Positions 28,767-49,799 of a stretch of DNA of 64,000 bases are shown piece after piece. The stretch spans positions 1,471 to 65,470 of the forward strand of contig CANFJV010000001.1 in NCBI GenBank assembly GCA_947447225.1. The letters are read 5' to 3'. The DNA comes from Acidimicrobiaceae bacterium. Its GTDB lineage: Bacteria; Actinomycetota; Acidimicrobiia; Acidimicrobiales; RAAP-2. The translations under genes and the position numbers were made by a program. The notes below the pieces were generated by a model. That model saw nothing but the letters and a program-made list of their open reading frames with translations. It was not told where the DNA came from and made no database searches. The first letter of the stretch is position 1. Every line of letters starts with the position of its first letter.

Positions 28767-28930
28767 GGTGCCACAAGCCTACCGGCTGGCTTCTCGTCAA
28801 GGGTTCCAGCACCAGTGAAATGGTTGTGTGCGGCTGACCTGGTCTTTGACCCCACACTCGCCTGCAGCAGGGCTTCCTCAGCGATTCTCGTGACACAAGT
28901 GCCACGCGACCCGCCTCAGTCCTCCCGTCT

Positions 28931-28960
28931 CGATCTCGCCTCGGTCGAGGTCTGAGATCG
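28931..28960. terminator. interrupted hairpin (7-bp outer and 5-bp inner stem) in the gap between the MFS gene and secA
   Basis: cgatctc-g-cctcg-gt-cgagg-tct-gagatcg. No T-tract, so the function is uncertain. Confidence 0.3.
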
Positions 28961-29078
28961 GCAGGGCTTACTTCTAAACCGCTCCATGCTCAGCGACCAC
29001 AAGTCGCCTTACGTGGGTCGTTTTGCCTGCGACTGGCATCGACTTGCAACCACAGACCCGCACACAACCACCTTTAGC

Positions 29079-41677: not shown

Positions 41678-43783
41678 TTAGGGCAACTGCTGAACGACGA
41701 GTGGCATCACCGAAGATGCCCCCGCCCCTCGCAGCAGCGAAGCGGCCACCGTCATTGTCCAACCACTGCGGTAGGTGTCATCAACGAGGAGCAACGGTCC
41801 GTTCGACGGCACCATCGCCTCATTTCTCACCGTCATCGAGGACAACAGCTGTTCCACCTTTGCCTTTGACGCCGCTTGCGGATCAGGAGCAGGACCACTC
41901 ATCGCAAGGGCATCAACGAGCTCCAATTTGCCAGCGCGGGCAATGTGCTCGGCCATCTGCATGATGAGGCGGGGGTGGCGTCGTGAGGGCATTGGCACCA
42001 CTGCGATCGGTCTCGCATTCCAGGTGGTTCGCCACTTGGCGAGTACCGCGATCATCCCGTCCAAGACCTCATCGGTGGCCTTGTCATCTTCTAGAGCAAG
42101 CAGACGAGCCGCAGCACGCCAGGCTGGTGCATCAGCGAAGAACACCGCACGACCGTCGGCGGGGCCAACAATTCGACCTCGGTGGCCACTGCTCAACCCG
42201 CTTGGCCAAAGCTTTCGAGGCTCAAGGCTGACGACTTCTCCGCGCAAATATTCGGTTGCTGCGACCAGAGATTCTGCATCGATGGTTAGGCCATCAATTG
42301 GGGCATGTCCAGTGCACACGGAACAACGCCCACATGGAGCGGGGTCCAGATCATCTAAGGCGAGTTGCAAGAACTGCATCAGGCAGCCTTTGGCCGCCGC
42401 ATAGGAGCGCATGAGGTCGGCCTCGCACGCACGGGCTGCTTTGACGCTCTCCCACTTTTCATGGTCGTAGGTGTAGGCGACCCCGGTCCCGATCCAACCA
42501 CCTTCGACTCGCTCGACTGCACCTTCAACCGCAACAATGCGTAAGAGTGCTTCGAGGCGACTCCTTCGAATACCAGTATCTGACTCAAGTGCTGGAACCG
42601 ACAGTGGTTCCGTTCTGTTGCCGAGAATGTTGAGGGTCTTGACGATGTCACGTTCATCGGGGATTGAGGCGGTGGCGAAGTACTCCCACAGCCGCTCGTC
42701 GGTTTCTGCCGGCAACAGAATTGCGTCTGCTCGATCGAGCTTTCTTCCGGCTCGACCCACTTGTTGGTAGTAGGCAACGGGAGAATCGGGTGAGCCCACA
42801 TGGATGCAAAAGGAGAGGTCTGGCATGTCATAGCCCATTCCAAGTGCAGAGGTGGCTACGACCGCCTTTACGCCATGTGCTCGGAGTGCGTCTTCGACCT
42901 CCAAGCGACGCTCTGGCTCGAGCCGACCTGAATAGGCAACGACGTTGTGCCCAAGTTTCCTCAAGAACCCAGCTAGCCGATCGGTGTCGGCCACTGTTGG
43001 CACATAGATGATTCCTGAACCGTCGAGATGACCAAGTGCTTGATCGACCCAAACGAAGCGTTCAATGGGGCCGAGATGAGGAACAACGGAGAGGCGAAGT
43101 GACGAACGAGCCAGCGTGCCTCGCAGCACCACGGTGTCACTGCCAAGTTGGACAGCAACATCTGCGGTGACTCGACCATTGGCCGTGGCGGTCGTCGCGA
43201 GCACGGGTGTTGTTGGACTCTCTGCGAGAAGGTGTGCCACGCGTTGGTAGTCGGGTCGAAAGTCGAATCCCCAATCAGAAATGCAGTGTGCTTCGTCAAT
43301 CACGATGAGGCCAGCTCCGGCAATGAGTGGACCCATTCGATGAGCGAATTTTGGGTTGGAGAGTCTTTCGGGTGACACAAGCAACACGTCGATCTTGCCG
43401 TGCTCCACGCTCGCCATGAGGCGATCCCAATCATCGATATTGGTGGAATTGATCGTTGCAGCGGTGAGCCCCGCTCGCTCAGCTGCGCTCACCTGGTCTC
43501 GCATGAGCGCGAGCAGTGGCGACACGACGAGAGTCGGACCACGCCCAAGCGAGCGAAGTGCCGACGTCGCCGCCCAGTACACGAGCGACTTTCCCCAACC
43601 CGTTGCCTGCACCACTAGGACTCGAGCGCCGTCAACAACAAGAGCGCTCACTGCGGCAAGCTGATCTGCTCGAGGCGTCGCCTCAATGCCAGCAAGTGCG
43701 ATCACGACCCGTTCAGTATGAGTGTGCGCGAGTTTGACGAGCTCTTCATGGGTCGGTGCATTCATCTCATGGTTCGCCGTCAT
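41678..43783 (-). CDS. RecQ-family DNA helicase fused to a C-terminal ComF/phosphoribosyltransferase-like domain
   Basis: Helicase motifs VVQATGWGKSLVY, VIDEAHCISDWGFDFRPDY and ATTATA, plus the Zn-binding motif CGRCSVC. The C-terminus reads VVPMPSRRHPR...LLLVDDTYRSGWTMT (PRT-type loop). Confidence 0.8.
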   Translation of the reverse strand: MTANHEMNAPTHEELVKLAHTHTERVVIALAGIEATPRADQLAAVSALVVDGARVLVVQATGWGKSLVYWAATSALRSLGRGPTLVVSPLLALMRDQVSAAERAGLTAATINSTNIDDWDRLMASVEHGKIDVLLVSPERLSNPKFAHRMGPLIAGAGLIVIDEAHCISDWGFDFRPDYQRVAHLLAESPTTPVLATTATANGRVTADVAVQLGSDTVVLRGTLARSSLRLSVVPHLGPIERFVWVDQALGHLDGSGIIYVPTVADTDRLAGFLRKLGHNVVAYSGRLEPERRLEVEDALRAHGVKAVVATSALGMGYDMPDLSFCIHVGSPDSPVAYYQQVGRAGRKLDRADAILLPAETDERLWEYFATASIPDERDIVKTLNILGNRTEPLSVPALESDTGIRRSRLEALLRIVAVEGAVERVEGGWIGTGVAYTYDHEKWESVKAARACEADLMRSYAAAKGCLMQFLQLALDDLDPAPCGRCSVCTGHAPIDGLTIDAESLVAATEYLRGEVVSLEPRKLWPSGLSSGHRGRIVGPADGRAVFFADAPAWRAAARLLALEDDKATDEVLDGMIAVLAKWRTTWNARPIAVVPMPSRRHPRLIMQMAEHIARAGKLELVDALAMSGPAPDPQAASKAKVEQLLSSMTVRNEAMVPSNGPLLLVDDTYRSGWTMTVAASLLRGAGASSVMPLVVQQLP

Positions 43784-44066
43784 TGCAGCATCCTTTCAGC
43801 AGTTCAACGTTGCGTTGAAAAAGTCACCGACCCTACGTTTCGGGTGTCACCTATCCACCAAGGATTTGAGGACTCCAATCACCCTAGAGCCGAGATTTTT
43901 CGGTATTCACCCAGATAAAACAGGGTTTTTCGTTCTGTGGTCGATCGTCCAAATACCCCATGTTGTATGATGATTCCACCATCAAGAGCAGACGAGGGCC
44001 GTGGCCCGTTGACCCTGCCGCAACCGACCGAGAGGCACGGTGCGAATGCCACGCGATGGAGGAACA

Positions 44067-44387
44067 ATGCAAGTAACCATCGATCGAGGCATCCTCGGCT
44101 CGAGTGTTCACCCGCTCTCAAGGAATGTTGCAGCGTCAAATTTCCAGGTGTCCTCCTGGTTCTTTCGGCCATCGACCACCCTTCGATGCCTTTCACCTCA
44201 CGGCAACGAGCGCAAAGATCATCACGCTGTCGATCGCGTGAGTCGCGACTCGCACGTTTTCTCACCGCATCGACTGCTCGACAAATTCGCTTACCAAGGA
44301 GAGACGGCACGTGGCCTCGAGTCTGGCGAATCGCTCAGCACTCAATCGCTGAGCTTCGAGAGTCAACGAGCCCGCGCACCATCGTGA
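44067..44387 (+). CDS. hypothetical Ser/Arg-rich protein (106 aa), uncertain
   Basis: GGAGG lies 4 nt before ATG 44067. Third-position G+C is roughly genome-like by hand count. No motif recognised. Confidence 0.3.
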   Translation: MQVTIDRGILGSSVHPLSRNVAASNFQVSSWFFRPSTTLRCLSPHGNERKDHHAVDRVSRDSHVFSPHRLLDKFAYQGETARGLESGESLSTQSLSFESQRARAPS

Positions 44388-44425: not shown

Positions 44426-44431
44426 AAGGAG
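44426..44431 (+). promoter_or_regulatory. Shine-Dalgarno AAGGAG for the first zinc-ribbon-like ORF
   Basis: caaaaaAGGAGatctaccaATG, with 8-nt spacing to ATG 44440. Confidence 0.75.
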
Positions 44432-44439
44432 ATCTACCA

Positions 44440-44733
44440 ATGCAGCCAGTTCCACCATCAGTATGGTGCCCCCACGTGTTCTCGAAAGAGGTTCCGAGAA
44501 CGTCAAAACCCCAGCTTCGGCACCCGAAGCAAGCTGAGATGTACTTGCGTTCAGTGAGGCCATGGGCACCGTACGGATTCGATACAGAGTTTACCAATCA
44601 GTGTCAATTGTGCGGGATGCCGATAGACCAATGGGTCATTCCTGAACACCTCCTCCCGAAGCCACCGGAAGCACCGCAACCACAAAAGAAGAAGCGCTGG
44701 TGGCAACTCCTTGGCAAGAAGTGGACGTCATGA
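44440..44733 (+). CDS. hypothetical 97-aa CPH...CxxC zinc-ribbon-like protein with a basic Trp-rich tail (paralog 1)
   Basis: Strong SD. C10-P-H12 ... C55-x-x-C58 and tail KKKRWWQLLGKKWTS. It aligns over its whole length with the ORF at 44837. Confidence 0.65.
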   Translation: MQPVPPSVWCPHVFSKEVPRTSKPQLRHPKQAEMYLRSVRPWAPYGFDTEFTNQCQLCGMPIDQWVIPEHLLPKPPEAPQPQKKKRWWQLLGKKWTS

Positions 44734-44840
44734 CCATGAAGGCGATAAGTCTCCGCCGTTTTCACGGCACGAAACCGGCTACTCCGTCCAACCAAGAGGT
44801 AGTCGACTCGAACACACAACCCCTCTGGGAACTGGCATGA
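44730..44840 (+). CDS. 36-codon bridging micro-ORF (MTMKAISLRRFHGTKPATPSNQEVVDSNTQPLWELA)
   Basis: Its ATG overlaps the upstream TGA (ATGA at 44730-33) and its TGA overlaps the downstream ATG (ATGA at 44837-40). It falls below the ORF-track length cutoff. Confidence 0.45.
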   Translation: MTMKAISLRRFHGTKPATPSNQEVVDSNTQPLWELA

Positions 44841-45268
44841 GCCCTTCTCCAAGAAACTACGAAGACCCTCTTGCGAAACACAAACGAGCCCAAGCAACCA
44901 GTGAATTCGCAGAACAGATTGCCAAAGGAATTGGAAAACGGCCCATGACCGGGAAAACAGCTTCAGCAACGCGAGGGCCGGAAGAAAAATGCCCTCATCT
45001 CTACAGCGTCGTTGTGCCTCGAACCTTTGAAGAACGCCTCTATCGGCCAAGCCCCCCAAGTCTTCGCGGCTCTAAATACGGCTGGATGACAGTCACGTTC
45101 AGATACTGCCCCTATTGCCGACTTGACCTCACAAAGCCCCTGCCCAGAGAGAGGCGTTGGCTGAGCAAATGGACGGGGTCGTGGTTCTCTACGCGGCCCG
45201 GGAGGGCCTACAGGAAGAAATTTCCGGAAAAGGTGATCGACCCCTATGGCCTCCACGATCTGTTCTGA
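44837..45268 (+). CDS. hypothetical 143-aa CPH...CxxC zinc-ribbon-like protein (paralog 2)
   Basis: C52-P-H54 ... C91-P-Y-C94 followed by RERRWLSKWTGSWFS. ATG 44837 was chosen for the ATGA coupling; the frame is open from TTG 44711. Confidence 0.6.
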   Translation: MSPSPRNYEDPLAKHKRAQATSEFAEQIAKGIGKRPMTGKTASATRGPEEKCPHLYSVVVPRTFEERLYRPSPPSLRGSKYGWMTVTFRYCPYCRLDLTKPLPRERRWLSKWTGSWFSTRPGRAYRKKFPEKVIDPYGLHDLF

Positions 45269-45290
45269 GACAACGTGCTAACACTTTCAG

Positions 45291-46181
45291 GTGGCTGAAC
45301 CCAAGGTTGTCCTCTTCTATTGCTTCACTCCTCTCGCTGATCCACCGGCCATTCGCCTTTGGCAGAAGACCCTGTGTGAGTCTTTAGATCTGCGAGGCCG
45401 CATCATCATTTCGCCGCATGGGATCAATGCCACCGTTGGTGGTGATCTGAAAGCGGTCAAACGCTATGTTCGCGACACCAAGTCCTACCTGCCGTTCAAG
45501 CACATTGATGTGAAGTGGTCAGTCGGGCGTGGTGATGATTTCCCGCGCCTATCGGTCAAGGTGCGCCCTGAGCTTGTGGCCTTTGGCGCACCAGAAGAAG
45601 TCTTGGTGAATGAAGATGGAGTCGTTGGTGGCGGCGTGCACCTAAGCCCAGCTGAGCTACACGCACTTGTCACAGCTCGTGGAGAAGAGGTTGTCTTCTT
45701 TGATGGGCGAAATGCCTTTGAGGCAGAAGTCGGCAAATTCAAAAATGCGATCGTTCCCAACATCAAGACCTCGCATGATTTCGTTGCCGAAATCGAAAGT
45801 GGCAAGTACGACGATTTGATGGACAAACCAGTTGTCACCTATTGCACCGGTGGCATTCGCTGCGAGGTTTTGAGTGCCGTGATGAAGCGTCGCGGCTTCA
45901 ACGAGGTATATCAACTCCATGGCGGCATCATCCGCTACGGCGAAGCTTTTGGTGACAAGGGTCTATGGGAAGGCTCGCTCGTCGTCTTTGATGAGCGCAT
46001 GGTGCAGACCTTTTCCGAGCATCCAAAGGTCATCAGCCACTGTGAATCGTGTGAGACGCCGACCACGAACTACATCAACTGCGGCAACCTTGCCTGCAGA
46101 GCACTGCTCCTGCTTTGCCCAACTTGCATTGAAAATGGCGCAGGAGCCACGTGTTCGCCCAGTCATAAAGGACGAAGGTAG
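45291..46181 (+). CDS. trhO: rhodanese-domain tRNA uridine(34) hydroxylase (TrhO/YceA, UPF0176)
   Basis: [14 protein letters not shown]-terminus, rhodanese loop YCTGGIRCE, and a Cys-rich C-terminus CESC...CGN..C...CPTC. Confidence 0.85.
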
Positions 46182-46273: not shown

Positions 46274-46867
46274 ATGACGACTGCCACGCGAAACGTAGAA
46301 CCAGGGCGCCGGACGCGAATACTGAAAGACGAAGCTCGGGCGCGGTTGATTTCTGCAACGATCACACTGTGCGAGCGCCTGCCCTTTAACGAGGTCAGCA
46401 CTCGAATGATCTGCGCCGAGGCAGGACTGAACCCGTCAACCATCCTTCAACAGTTCGGAACCCTTGACGCTCTTCTTGCCGAGTCCGCCAAGGAACTTGT
46501 CCGTCGATATACCAGTGACCGGGACAACTGGAGTGGAGAACCCTCCGCGTTCAGCGACGACGGGATCGCACTGAGAAGTCGACTTGTCGCGTGGCTCCTT
46601 CTTAAAGGGTATGAGCCGCAGCAACTCCGAAGTGAACTCCTGACGGATGAAACAGTTATGGCCCGTCAGGTTGCTGTGCTTCACGTTGGCAACCGCATGG
46701 CAGCGGCATGGACCTCACTGACATCGATGATCGTCGAAGCCAACGCCATCTTCGGTCCAACACACCAGCTCAGCGAACAAGAAACCCAAGACGTCGTGCA
46801 ACTGGTCTTTGCCATGCGAGAGGCACTTCCCGCAATTGAAGAAAAAATGGGTTGGGAGGCGTCCTAG
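46274..46867 (+). CDS. TetR-family transcriptional regulator
   Basis: N-terminal HTH FNEVSTRMICAEAGLNPSTILQQFGT. Confidence 0.8.
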   Translation: MTTATRNVEPGRRTRILKDEARARLISATITLCERLPFNEVSTRMICAEAGLNPSTILQQFGTLDALLAESAKELVRRYTSDRDNWSGEPSAFSDDGIALRSRLVAWLLLKGYEPQQLRSELLTDETVMARQVAVLHVGNRMAAAWTSLTSMIVEANAIFGPTHQLSEQETQDVVQLVFAMREALPAIEEKMGWEAS

Positions 46868-48641: not shown

Positions 48642-49799
48642 CTACCTCGCGTGCGGCATGCACAGATCGTCGTATTCGGCGATCACAATTGGCGGGGCAC
48701 CCTCGCCACAAGCCGGGCACTTCGGATCACGACGAACCTTGAAGGTCCTGAAAGACTCTTCAAGTGCATCAAAGGCAAGCAAGCGACCCACGAGCGGCTC
48801 ACCGAGGCCCAAGATGAGCTTCAGGGCTTCTAAGGCCTGGATCGATCCAACAATGCCTGGCAACACGCCAAGAACGCCAGCTTCTGCACACGATGGAGCG
48901 AGCTCCGCGGGAGGTGGCTCAGGGATGAGGCAGCGATAGCACGGTCCGTTATAGGGATCAAAAATCGTGACTTGACCCTCAAAACGGAAGATGGATCCGT
49001 GGACGACGGGGATCTTCTTGAGCAGCGCTGCATCATTCACGAGGTAGCGGGTTGGGAAGTTATCCGTGCCGTCGACGATGACGTCGTAGCCATCGATGAT
49101 GTCCAAGATATTGTCCGCACCAAGGCGAGTGTCATACGTCGTCACTTCCAAATCCGGGTTCATGCCAGTGAGTGCAGCCTTGGCTGAATCAACCTTTCGC
49201 ATGCCAACTCGGTCCAAATTGTGGAGAATCTGTCGCTGCAGGTTCGACTCATCCACAACGTCCATGTCAATGATGCCGAGGTGGCCAACGCCGGCTGCGG
49301 CCAGGTACAGCGCAGACGGCGAACCGAGTCCACCAGCACCAAGCATCAAGACCTTGGCGTCAAGCAACTTCTGCTGACCCTTTTCGCCAACTTCTGGCAG
49401 CAGCAAGTGCCGCTGGTAGCGGTTGCGCTGTGCTGGGGTCAACGTACGAGGCGTCGTCCACACAAGGCCGCTGTCTTTCCACTTATTGAAGCCACCAATG
49501 ACCGAAGTGACATCTTTGTAGCCCAAGTCTTGGAGCGTCTTTGCGGCAAACGCTGAGCGCACGCCACCAGCGCAGTACACAATGACCGGAGATTCTTTGT
49601 CCGGGAGCTTGCCTTCGACCTGGAATTCGAGGTGACCTCGAGGAAGGTGAATCGCACCAGGGACCGCGCCTTGCTCATACTCGTCGGGTTCACGAACGTC
49701 CAGGAACGTCGTTGAGCCGACGAGGTCGACAACATCAGCTGGTTCAGCTTCTTTGATCTCAGCTTTTGCGGCGTTTAACAGCTCACGGGGTGTTGACAT
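48642..49799 (-). CDS. ThiF/MoeB-family adenylyltransferase with an N-terminal rhodanese domain
   Basis: Rhodanese active-site loop YCAGGVRS at about residue 76. Then GAGGLGSP (E1 nucleotide loop) and the zinc pairs CYRC and CPAC. Confidence 0.85.
   Translation of the reverse strand: MSTPRELLNAAKAEIKEAEPADVVDLVGSTTFLDVREPDEYEQGAVPGAIHLPRGHLEFQVEGKLPDKESPVIVYCAGGVRSAFAAKTLQDLGYKDVTSVIGGFNKWKDSGLVWTTPRTLTPAQRNRYQRHLLLPEVGEKGQQKLLDAKVLMLGAGGLGSPSALYLAAAGVGHLGIIDMDVVDESNLQRQILHNLDRVGMRKVDSAKAALTGMNPDLEVTTYDTRLGADNILDIIDGYDVIVDGTDNFPTRYLVNDAALLKKIPVVHGSIFRFEGQVTIFDPYNGPCYRCLIPEPPPAELAPSCAEAGVLGVLPGIVGSIQALEALKLILGLGEPLVGRLLAFDALEESFRTFKVRRDPKCPACGEGAPPIVIAEYDDLCMPHAR

Follow-up and report, generated by a model that had tools for sequence, protein, structure and literature searches.

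SAM-I (S-box) regulons control the synthesis or transport of methionine and SAM. Base stems that overlap the translation start directly have been described as characteristic of actinobacterial riboswitches (PMC1262725). No paper was found in the literature searched that ties a SAM riboswitch to TrhO, UPF0176, a rhodanese, or the Acidimicrobiia.

ATGA stop-start overlaps are sites of termination-reinitiation in translationally coupled operons; we know of no described case in which two paralogues are joined by a dedicated spacer ORF of fixed length. Zinc ribbons and related small Cys4-type metal-binding proteins include, for example, small zinc-binding ribosomal proteins. For TrhO (YceA/UPF0176), the oxygen-dependent tRNA uridine(34) hydroxylase, no described accessory proteins are known to us. 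The rhodanese active-site motif of TrhO is CXGGXR (PMC12288880). In vitro, E. coli TrhO reached 75% ho5U only at ten-fold enzyme excess (PMC6599085), and ho5U is normally modified further with SAM-derived groups (PMC6599085, PMC12288880); neither of these two papers mentions accessory proteins for TrhO. Because so large an enzyme excess was needed, helper factors for TrhO are conceivable, a link that is drawn here and is not a claim of PMC6599085.

The locus considered here lies in a stretch of 64,000 nucleotides (the window) from an Acidimicrobiaceae bacterium (contig CANFJV010000001.1, assembly GCA_947447225.1). Its features, in order of position, are as follows.

41678-43783, minus strand: RecQ-PRT helicase, the divergent, upstream neighbour of the block
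43976-44062, plus strand: SAM-I riboswitch aptamer (RF00162), Rfam 53.5 bits
44058-44062, plus strand: Shine-Dalgarno sequence GGAGG of ORF0, inside the 3' strand of riboswitch stem P1 and 4 nt 5' of the AUG at 44067
44067-44387, plus strand: ORF0, 106 aa, the first frame 3' of the riboswitch, fast-evolving
44426-44431, plus strand: Shine-Dalgarno sequence AAGGAG of P1, 8 nt 5' of the ATG
44440-44733, plus strand: P1, 97 aa, basic (pI 9.7)
44730-44840, plus strand: ORFb, 36 codons, bridging P1 and P2
44837-45268, plus strand: P2, 143 aa, basic (pI 10.1)
45291-46181, plus strand: trhO (GTG start), for the oxygen-dependent tRNA uridine(34) hydroxylase; closes the putative operon

A preliminary description of this DNA had reported P1 and P2 as tandem small proteins between the helicase and trhO, and both ORFs and both neighbours stand where it placed them. 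P1 and P2 are not free-standing genes: they form the middle of a five-frame unit, in which the SAM-I riboswitch is followed by ORF0, P1, the 36-codon ORFb, P2, and trhO. The riboswitch, ORF0, ORFb, and the coupling architecture, which are absent from that description, tell more about the locus than any other feature. The slightly lower G+C content that it remarked on is real and trivial (0.545 for the region and 0.570 for the window; trhO itself has 0.538). We give about an even chance to the reading that the unit is an operon repressed by SAM, with coupling at the P1-ORFb-P2 junctions, and that its products P1 and P2 are basic nucleic-acid binders, probably stabilized by zinc and possibly acting with TrhO.

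The riboswitch is a full-length member of its family: the match to RF00162 covers model positions 1-108 and scores 53.5 bits against an Rfam gathering threshold of 44.4. RF00162 is also matched in L001, L002, L003, and L011, which are all of the related loci that were scanned with Rfam (55.7-56.3 bits at the related loci). The closing stem of the aptamer, stem P1, pairs 5' CCACCAUC (43976-43983) with 3' GAUGGAGG (44055-44062), and the same stem forms in the minimum free energy (MFE) fold. The aptamer is nearly invariant across five lineages, unlike the DNA 3' of it. Both the Rfam alignment and the sequence place the GGAGG of ORF0 inside the 3' strand of stem P1, as the expression platform of an actinobacterial SAM-I riboswitch would have it; intrinsic terminators that could serve as the platform were sought as well, and only weak, unconserved candidates at or below shuffle expectation appeared. 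The polarity would be OFF, with the SAM-bound stem shutting translation. The element differs from other SAM-I riboswitches in its P4, which is shortened to a stub, and from SAM-I regulons in what it precedes, three clade-specific small ORFs and trhO instead of genes for methionine or SAM synthesis or transport.

ORF0 begins with ATG in five lineages and with GTG in L011; every lineage has an open frame from this one start, with 106 aa in the window and 100-119 aa elsewhere. Its SD-to-AUG spacing of 4 nt is short, and this counts against the model. Within the subclade of L002, L009, and L011, ORF0 behaves as a coding sequence: at 56% DNA identity the differences by codon position are 36/38/58, and dN/dS is 0.25 in frame vs 1.34 and 0.94 out of frame. 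The window version has only about 20% identity to those of this subclade, and the in-frame dN/dS of the two closest lineage pairs is 0.46 and 1.07. A protein conserved throughout the clade was considered for ORF0 and rejected on these values, its support being limited to the L002/L009/L011 subclade. No homologues of ORF0 were found outside the clade, and searches of Pfam, NCBIfam, PHROGs, PADLOC, and, by sequence profile, PDB gave no match.

The pattern of substitutions identifies P1 and P2 as genuine protein-coding genes under selection. P1 has the textbook Shine-Dalgarno sequence that had been attributed to it (AAGGAG, 8 nt from the ATG), and (G)AGGAG is kept 5' of the P1 ATG in all lineages. 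The start of P2 is the ATG at 44837; all orthologues share the conserved N-terminus MSPS(P/A)R, and the assignment is further backed by an in-frame stop that L007 has 6 nt upstream of the start. P1 and P2 occur as a pair at the same place in five syntenic lineages. The P1 orthologues of five lineages share 38 invariant columns, which include all four putative metal ligands, and the P2 orthologues of the four complete lineages share 61. In P1 there are 26 columns in which the residue is invariant and the codon varies; such synonymous-only variation in P1 and P2 includes the Cys/His, PRT, and APYG positions. dN/dS is 0.14-0.27 for P1 and 0.26-0.45 for P2, with 0.09-0.22 in their cores, well below the value of 1 that neutral evolution would give; for trhO it is about 0.06, and the evolution of P1 and P2 is three to seven times faster than that of trhO. 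Gene callers disagree in this region; in L002, a minus-strand ORF is called across P1.

P1 and P2 are tandem paralogues whose cores of about 50 residues are homologous, judged by profile comparison. Pairwise BLASTP matches only the CPH..VPRT segment (E 2e-4), whereas hhalign, given profiles of five P1 and five P2 orthologues, aligns 50 columns (P1 6-61 with P2 48-97; probability 85%, E 6e-6). The hhalign score of 36.7 compares with a mean of 11.5 (sd 2.4) and a maximum of 24.1 over 300 column shuffles. Thirteen positions are invariant across both paralogues (P2 numbering): P48, C52, H54, R62, T63, Y81, G82, T85, C91, C94, P101, P103, and W116. The motifs quoted in the preliminary description are real and its paralogy holds for the core, but its end-to-end alignment was overstated, since the basic tails of the two proteins have in common only P..P and one W. 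P2 also carries a 47-residue N-terminal extension, with a helix predicted at residues 13-34, and about 25 C-terminal residues that P1 lacks.

The putative metal ligands of P1 are C10 (44467-44469), H12 (44473-44475), C55 (44602-44604), and C58 (44611-44613), and those of P2 are C52 (44990-44992), H54 (44996-44998), C91 (45107-45109), and C94 (45116-45118). C-x-H and C-x-x-C, for which conservation had been proposed, are invariant in every intact copy of P1 and P2 that was aligned, and a further P1-like protein, P0009, retains both pairs. Both ligands of the first pair are gone only in the truncated P2 of L011. None of the outcomes that the preliminary description named as refuting it was observed: homologues retain the Cys/His pattern, and dN/dS stays well below 1. 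In each protein, the four invariant residues most likely form the site of a single structural metal ion, probably zinc. The AF2 model of P1 has a pLDDT of 73 as a whole and of 81-87 in its core; C-x-H is followed by a strand (15-19), a helix spans 29-38, and a second strand (47-51) precedes CxxC. The model of P2 is poor (pLDDT 51). In a Foldseek search of PDB and BFVD, the P1 model found no match with E below 1, and no solved zinc ribbon was matched.

The zinc-ribbon-like nature of P1 and P2 is accordingly kept as a hypothesis. The two proteins share with the zinc-ribbon class their small size, their basic charge, two potential ligand pairs 35-45 residues apart, and predicted β strands flanking the pairs; the second pair forms a C-x-x-C-G knuckle in P1 and reads CPYC, lacking the glycine, in P2. 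Unlike zinc ribbons, they have C-x-H instead of C-x-x-C as the first pair, and P1 has a helix between its strands. The likeness is one of type and not of membership; no sequence or fold match to solved or viral predicted structures was found.

Nucleic acid is the most likely binding partner of P1 and P2, to judge from their high pI, their hydrophilicity, and their Trp/Arg/Lys-rich tails. The membrane contact offered as an alternative in the preliminary description is unlikely: pI is 9.6-10.2, GRAVY is -0.8 to -1.5, and no hydrophobic segment is seen. That P1 and P2 act on or with tRNA and TrhO is a guess.

The family itself has no detectable relatives beyond a few freshwater Acidimicrobiaceae genomes, and the sequence searches present it as an orphan. 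P1 and P2 have zero matches in Pfam and NCBIfam (E <= 1), PHROGs and PADLOC (E <= 0.1), and PDB sequences (E <= 10). Among 1.84 billion representative proteins, an exhaustive HMMER profile search recovered nothing but the two clusters of the family itself, and word-indexed searches for distant homologues returned only proteins of the same clade. With Foldseek empty as well, the earlier failure to assign the two proteins to any family is borne out. The restriction of the block to one narrow clade counts against its importance.

ORFb joins the two paralogues by its ends. Its ATG overlaps the stop of P1 and its TGA overlaps the ATG of P2, in each case as ATGA. The same 36 codons and both overlaps are present in L001, L002, and L007, and L009 keeps the ORF and the overlap on the P2 side. 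Between lineage groups the nucleotide identity of ORFb is only 43-48% and its amino-acid identity about 20%; when its interior is shuffled, the frame remains open in 23-29% of trials per lineage. From these overlaps we infer translational coupling at the P1-ORFb-P2 junctions. The arrangement is that of ATGA-coupled operons, except that the paralogues are joined by a dedicated 36-codon spacer ORF, fixed in length and free in sequence. A programmed frameshift through P1, ORFb, and P2 was also considered, and no slippery sequence is seen at the window's junction (ACG TCA TGA). In L001 and L007, the stop of ORF0 overlaps the ATG of P1 (TAATG). The frames do not overlap at the ORF0-P1 gap of the window and L002 (53-74 nt) or at the P2-trhO gap (22 nt), and coupling across these gaps is only assumed.

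The downstream gene is a bona fide trhO. Its product matches the NCBIfam equivalog NF001133 with 235.1 bits against a cut-off of 170, contains the Pfam domains UPF0176_N, Rhodanese, and Rhodanese_C, and carries CTGGIR, which fits the CXGGXR motif. The P2-trhO gap of 22 nt is identical in L001, L002, and L007, and no terminator-like site is predicted between P2 and trhO; we infer that P1 and P2 are co-transcribed with trhO.

One lineage shows what the locus can lose. In L011, a deletion removed P1, ORFb, and codons 1-47 of P2, while the riboswitch, ORF0, and trhO were kept; in the residual P2, R-x-R replaces C-x-H and the dN/dS of the core rises to about 0.5. The P1/P2 pair is dispensable in at least this lineage.

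It seems rather unlikely that the frames between riboswitch and trhO act as a ribosome relay, carrying the translational decision about 1.2 kb to trhO and shielding the RNA from Rho, with P1 and P2 as young, fast-evolving by-products of little function. ORF0 and ORFb keep frame and length and barely keep sequence, as the low identities of both and the dN/dS of the closest ORF0 pairs attest; the faster evolution of P1 and P2 relative to trhO, the confinement of the family to one narrow clade, and the deletion in L011 that spared riboswitch, ORF0, and trhO all point the same way. A pure relay, however, needs no such constraint as is found within P1 and P2: the 38 and 61 invariant columns, the synonymous-only variation at motif codons, the low dN/dS of the cores, and the same 13 positions retained in both paralogues since their duplication.

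A more specific form of the operon reading, in which P1 and P2 are a metal-stabilized, tRNA-binding helper pair of TrhO, made only at low SAM through a riboswitch-gated relay of frames (ORF0, P1, ORFb, P2, trhO), is distinctly improbable. Several points count against the operon reading in its broader form as well. Among 80 other trhO loci (identity 61-87%), surveyed for the riboswitch with a motif screen on all 80 and with Rfam on 12, the riboswitch is present only in L011 and the intact P1/P2 pair in none, and TrhO therefore clearly works without P1 and P2, of which no trhO locus outside this clade has a copy. A wider link between riboswitch and trhO was dropped on the same survey, with a riboswitch in 1 of 80 metagenomic trhO relatives and no intact pair. 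Two trhO relatives at 72-74% identity (L017 and L031) have a different divergent gene upstream. The linkage to trhO says little about function, since it is confined to a single narrow clade whose whole neighbourhood is syntenic. Nor is there an obvious logic in an OFF switch that raises TrhO at low SAM, given that the groups normally added to ho5U derive from SAM.

The helicase upstream suggests another partner. P1, P2, and perhaps ORF0 could be antitoxin-like or regulatory partners of a PsyrT-like RecQ-PRT helicase, as in PsyrTA, which we consider very improbable. The helicase has DEAD/Helicase_C and a weak PRT domain in Pfam; it fits the PADLOC PsyrT model PDLC03928 over its full length (624.6 bits, E 5e-188, residues 26-697 of 700), and in all lineages with the block it lies immediately upstream. 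This adjacency is explained by the general synteny of closely related genomes, and the helicase is conserved and syntenic here, with no obvious island. Unlike in PsyrTA, the helicase is divergent from its would-be partners: P1, P2, and ORF0 are encoded on the other strand, downstream of a SAM riboswitch, and it is trhO, not the helicase, to which they are tightly linked. A PADLOC scan of these three proteins gave no match, PsyrA included, and PHROGs gave none for them either. In L011, P1 and half of P2 are deleted with helicase-derived sequence still adjoining.

An origin of P1 and P2 as detached copies, by partial duplication of the Cys-rich C-terminal (Rhodanese_C) region of trhO, is extremely improbable. 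The P1 profile does align to TrhO 226-261, the start of Rhodanese_C with its first CxxC, with a score of 24.5 vs a maximum of 19.6 in 150 shuffles, and a weak alignment of the P2 profile to TrhO 157-220 scores 20.9, a value attained in 4 of 150 shuffles. Without the CxxC knuckle, the score of P1 falls to 12.2 against a null mean of 11.5, so the signal is gone and the proposed origin was rejected as unsupported; a CxxCGxP knuckle is easily convergent. The YG...CxxC module that P1 and P2 share falls at inconsistent positions of TrhO, a combined P1/P2 profile reaches a probability of 0.13% against a four-sequence TrhO alignment, and P1 and P2 have no Pfam match to Rhodanese_C.

Practically no chance is left to the reading that trhO simply has a long non-coding riboswitch leader in which the ORFs are spurious: the disagreement among gene callers, as in L002, and the poor conservation of the DNA from the aptamer to P1 would favor it, but the substitution pattern already rules it out, with dN/dS in both the P1 and the P2 frame well below 1, conserved starts, Shine-Dalgarno sequence, and motifs, synonymous-only variation at conserved residues, and conservation between the paralogues.

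In the SAM-repressed operon that we prefer, control would begin at ORF0. With SAM bound, the aptamer stem would form and ORF0 would go untranslated, its leader RNA presumably exposed to Rho or decay; when SAM is scarce, ORF0 would be translated. Expression would then pass along the transcript from ORF0 to P1, which has its own strong Shine-Dalgarno sequence, and the two ATGA overlaps that link P1, ORFb, and P2 suggest termination-reinitiation from one frame to the next, with trhO following 22 nt after P2. The net effect would be joint production of P1, P2, and TrhO when the methyl donor is limiting.

The practical reach of these findings is limited, the P1/P2 family being confined to a few uncultured freshwater Acidimicrobiaceae. 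If the helper-pair reading is true, methyl-donor status would be tied directly to wobble-uridine hydroxylation, and P1 and P2 would be the first known TrhO accessory factors in the first SAM-riboswitch-controlled tRNA-modification operon. If the operon reading is true, a SAM-I riboswitch would have been recruited outside sulfur and methionine metabolism, to a tRNA hydroxylase and an orphan metal-binding pair. The chain of frames would then suggest how the decision of a translational riboswitch can be relayed by simple means across more than 1 kb; two of these frames, ORF0 and ORFb, seem to be retained for the act of translation and not for their products. The locus would also be a recent case in which the birth, duplication, and loss of small proteins can be traced, half of the pair being already deleted in one lineage.

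A SAM-I riboswitch, not seen in the preliminary description, lies on the strand of P1 and P2, the two small Cys/His proteins, at the head of a series of reading frames (ORF0, P1, ORFb, P2, trhO) whose overlaps and spacings are conserved. The features of the block are:

41678-43783, minus strand: divergent helicase gene, DEAD/Helicase_C with a weak C-terminal phosphoribosyltransferase domain (Pfam)
43976-44062, plus strand: complete SAM-I riboswitch (Rfam, 53.5 bits; gathering score 44.4)
43976-43983 with 44055-44062: riboswitch closing stem, CCACCAUC pairing with GAUGGAGG (Rfam alignment)
44067-44387, plus strand: ORF0, the first frame 3' of the riboswitch, 106 aa in this copy
44440-44733, plus strand: P1, 97 aa (ORF list), with the Shine-Dalgarno (SD) sequence AAGGAG 8 nt 5' of its ATG
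44730-44840, plus strand: ORFb, 36 codons, filling the P1-P2 gap
44837-45268, plus strand: P2, 143 aa, from an internal ATG of a longer ORF ending at 45268
45291-46181, plus strand: trhO, for tRNA uridine(34) hydroxylase; UPF0176_N, Rhodanese and Rhodanese_C domains (Pfam)

The ORF list thus agrees with the preliminary description on the positions and lengths of P1 and P2 and on the textbook SD of P1. The neighbours named there, a RecQ-PRT helicase and trhO, were likewise recognized by their Pfam domains, and the trhO product scores 235 bits with the TrhO equivalog of NCBIfam (cut-off 170). The lower G+C content also noted is real (0.545 for the block, 0.570 for the window), but it is uninformative, since that of trhO is 0.538.

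The riboswitch is a bona fide SAM-I aptamer with an SD sequence inside its closing stem: GGAGG in the stem is followed by 4 nt and then an AUG at 44067 (Rfam alignment), and this stem is also closed in the minimum-free-energy fold. A base stem overlapping the translation start is reported to be typical of actinobacterial riboswitches (PMC1262725), and here too the closing stem carries the SD near the ORF0 start. From this placement we propose an OFF switch that would control translation from the AUG at 44067. The riboswitch was matched in all four related loci scanned with Rfam (L001, L002, L003, and L011); the aptamer is nearly invariant between lineages and the ~370 nt 3' of it are variable. 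No literature link was found between a SAM riboswitch and trhO/UPF0176. Elsewhere the window carries a full-length raiA RNA motif (28825-29066, minus strand; RF03072, 163 bits; gathering score 101).

ORF0 starts within the riboswitch expression platform, and its frame is open from the shared start codon in all lineages (100-119 aa). Between L002 (7135-7437) and L011 (~980-1282), which share 56% DNA identity, the substitution pattern points clearly to a coding frame: the differences split 36/38/58 over the three codon positions, and the in-frame dN/dS of 0.25 compares with 1.34 and 0.94 out of frame. The ORF0 versions of the window and L001/L007 have ~20% identity to the L002/L011 type, and the closest pairs give in-frame dN/dS values of 0.46 and 1.07. 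Homologues are confined to this clade, with no family match in NCBIfam, PADLOC, or PHROGs. ORF0 may encode a small protein that evolves very fast, or its frame may be retained mainly for translation itself.

The frames that follow are closely joined. ORF0 and P1 overlap at stop and start in L001/L007 (TAATG). In four lineages P1 and P2 are separated by exactly 103 nt, an interval bridged by ORFb, which overlaps both neighbours by an ATGA, at one end its own ATG with the P1 stop and at the other its TGA with the P2 ATG; in L009 P1 ends 7 codons early, and the 36-codon ORFb and the P2 overlap are retained. Between lineage groups ORFb has 43-48% DNA identity and about 20% protein identity, codon-position bias is absent, and shuffling of its interior leaves the frame open in just 23-29% of trials per lineage. 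Frame, length, and overlaps thus appear conserved while the peptide varies, and we read ORFb as a putative translational relay. The P2-trhO spacing is 22 nt in the window, L001, L002, and L007, with no terminator-like site in the interval. trhO has a GTG start and no clear SD. Between L011 and L002 the DNA is unusually conserved over the final ~100 nt of P2 and the 22 nt before trhO (45150-45290), which could reflect an expression signal of trhO that overlaps the P2 tail.

Among 5.8 billion proteins, word-indexed searches picked out no more than five clusters resembling P2 and three resembling P1. Every contig fetched for these clusters has the order helicase (minus strand), small ORFs, P2, trhO, and a DNA scan found both P1 and P2 in each. 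With identical loci merged, these represent five distinct lineages: the window; L001; L002 (= L003-L006); L007 (= L008, L010); and L009, in which P2 is interrupted by the contig end. One related locus is labelled as an Acidimicrobiaceae MAG. Homologues keep the Cys/His pattern, and dN/dS (Nei-Gojobori) is well under 1, against neutral evolution: 0.14-0.27 for P1, 0.26-0.45 for P2, and about 0.06 for trhO. The residue is fixed while the codon varies at 26 alignment columns in P1, including the Cys, PRT, APYG, and QCQ.CG positions, and at 28 in P2. P1 and P2 are real genes under protein-level constraint, clearly weaker than that on trhO.

The end-to-end alignment proposed for the pair holds for a core and not for the tails, which have little in common, the C-terminus being longer in P2. 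Pairwise BLASTP aligns only the CPH..VPRT segment (E 2e-4); between orthologue profiles the alignment extends to 50 columns (P1 6-61/P2 48-97; E 6e-6) and scores 36.7 versus a mean of 11.5 (sd 2.4, max 24.1) for 300 column shuffles. The N-terminal extension of P2, put at about 50 aa, is 47 residues, with a predicted helix at 13-34. Thirteen positions are fixed in both paralogues (P2 numbering: P48, C52, H54, R62, T63, Y81, G82, T85, C91, C94, P101, P103, and W116), among them all four proposed Cys-x-His and CxxC ligands. P1 and P2 are therefore small paralogous proteins under selection, and the C-x-H ... C-x-x-C set in them is invariant.

Neither protein has a match in Pfam, NCBIfam, PHROGs, PADLOC, or PDB sequence profiles, and a joint profile run against all 1.84 billion representative proteins recovered only the family's own clusters, one P2-like and one P1-like. 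As first suspected, the family belongs to none known and, to judge from these searches, is new in that no relatives can be detected. AlphaFold models P2 poorly (pLDDT 51); its model of P1 has a usable core (pLDDT 81-87), with a strand (15-19) right after C-x-H, a helix (29-38), and a strand (47-51) right before CxxC, and Foldseek found no match for it under E 1 in PDB or BFVD. 'Zinc-ribbon-like' is still reasonable as a label of type, not as proof of membership. Both proteins are basic (pI 9.6-10.2) and hydrophilic (GRAVY -0.8 to -1.5), a composition that argues for a soluble nucleic-acid binder over a membrane protein and against the membrane contact once suggested.

The distribution of the block is narrow. 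Among the 80 best metagenomic trhO relatives (motif screen of 80, Rfam of 12), the riboswitch occurs in L011 alone, whose TrhO is 87% identical; the others (<=74%) showed neither riboswitch nor P1/P2-like ORF in the screens, and the two inspected, L017 and L031, have an unrelated divergent gene upstream of trhO. L011 is a natural deletion variant, a natural experiment on P1/P2 loss: riboswitch and ORF0 are kept, and P1, ORFb, and the first 47 P2 codons are deleted (locus 889-1650). What remains of P2 is a frame of 97 codons that starts at a GTG; it has EQKRKRLPALVAPRTFEE in place of EKC.HLYSV.VPRTFEE of intact copies, so that both first-pair ligands (C-x-H) are lost; YGW has become YGP and CPYC CPSC, and the C-terminal tail is nearly unchanged (…TRLGKAYRKKFPEKVVDPYGLHDLF). 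Core dN/dS is 0.47-0.53 for the remnant versus 0.09-0.22 among intact lineages. These losses indicate that P1/P2 are dispensable in at least one lineage.

Downstream of trhO is a variable spot within an otherwise syntenic region: a TetR regulator gene follows in the window (46274-46867, plus strand), methylmalonyl-CoA mutase directly in L001, GH10 in L003, and GH1 in L007/L010. Sulfur/methionine-related neighbours of the SAM-controlled block are a MoeZ-like ThiF+rhodanese gene in the window (48642-49799, minus strand) and a B12-dependent methionine synthase gene in L001 (15106-16432), each a few kb past the riboswitch operon.

P1/P2 might be partners of the helicase, but the idea is unsupported. 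The helicase fits the PADLOC model of PsyrT, a RecQ-type helicase that is the toxin in the PsyrTA toxin-antitoxin/defence pair (PMC8790059), over its full length (624.6 bits, E 5e-188), and has the C-terminal PRT-like domain; unlike PsyrTA, however, the small genes lie on the opposite strand, behind a SAM riboswitch and joined to trhO, and P1, P2, and ORF0 have no PADLOC match. Since the helicase gene is conserved and syntenic at all related loci, it may be a relative with a housekeeping role and not one in defence. An origin of P1/P2 from trhO was not accepted: the P1 profile scores 24.5 against the start of the TrhO Rhodanese_C domain, above all 150 shuffles, but the signal vanishes once the CxxC knuckle is removed, and the P1-to-TrhO and P2-to-TrhO alignments contradict each other.

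Under the proposed OFF switch, SAM binding would hide the ORF0 ribosome-binding site; at low SAM, ORF0 would be translated, then P1, ORFb, and P2 in sequence, with trhO along with them, and untranslated RNA would presumably be exposed to Rho or be degraded. The four Cys/His residues probably hold one structural metal. A role of P1 and P2 as tRNA- or RNA-binding helpers of TrhO is a guess, and in that specific version an improbable one. E. coli TrhO requires a ten-fold enzyme excess in vitro for 75% modification of a tRNA (PMC6599085), so missing helper factors are conceivable; TrhO clearly works without P1/P2 in nearly all bacteria, and since groups derived from SAM are normally added to ho5U (PMC6599085, PMC12288880), induction at low SAM is hard to rationalize. 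The significance of P1/P2, whose roles are proposed from sequence, is tempered by their very narrow distribution and the evidence for dispensability; the riboswitch-plus-relay architecture is a more interesting finding than the orphan family itself.
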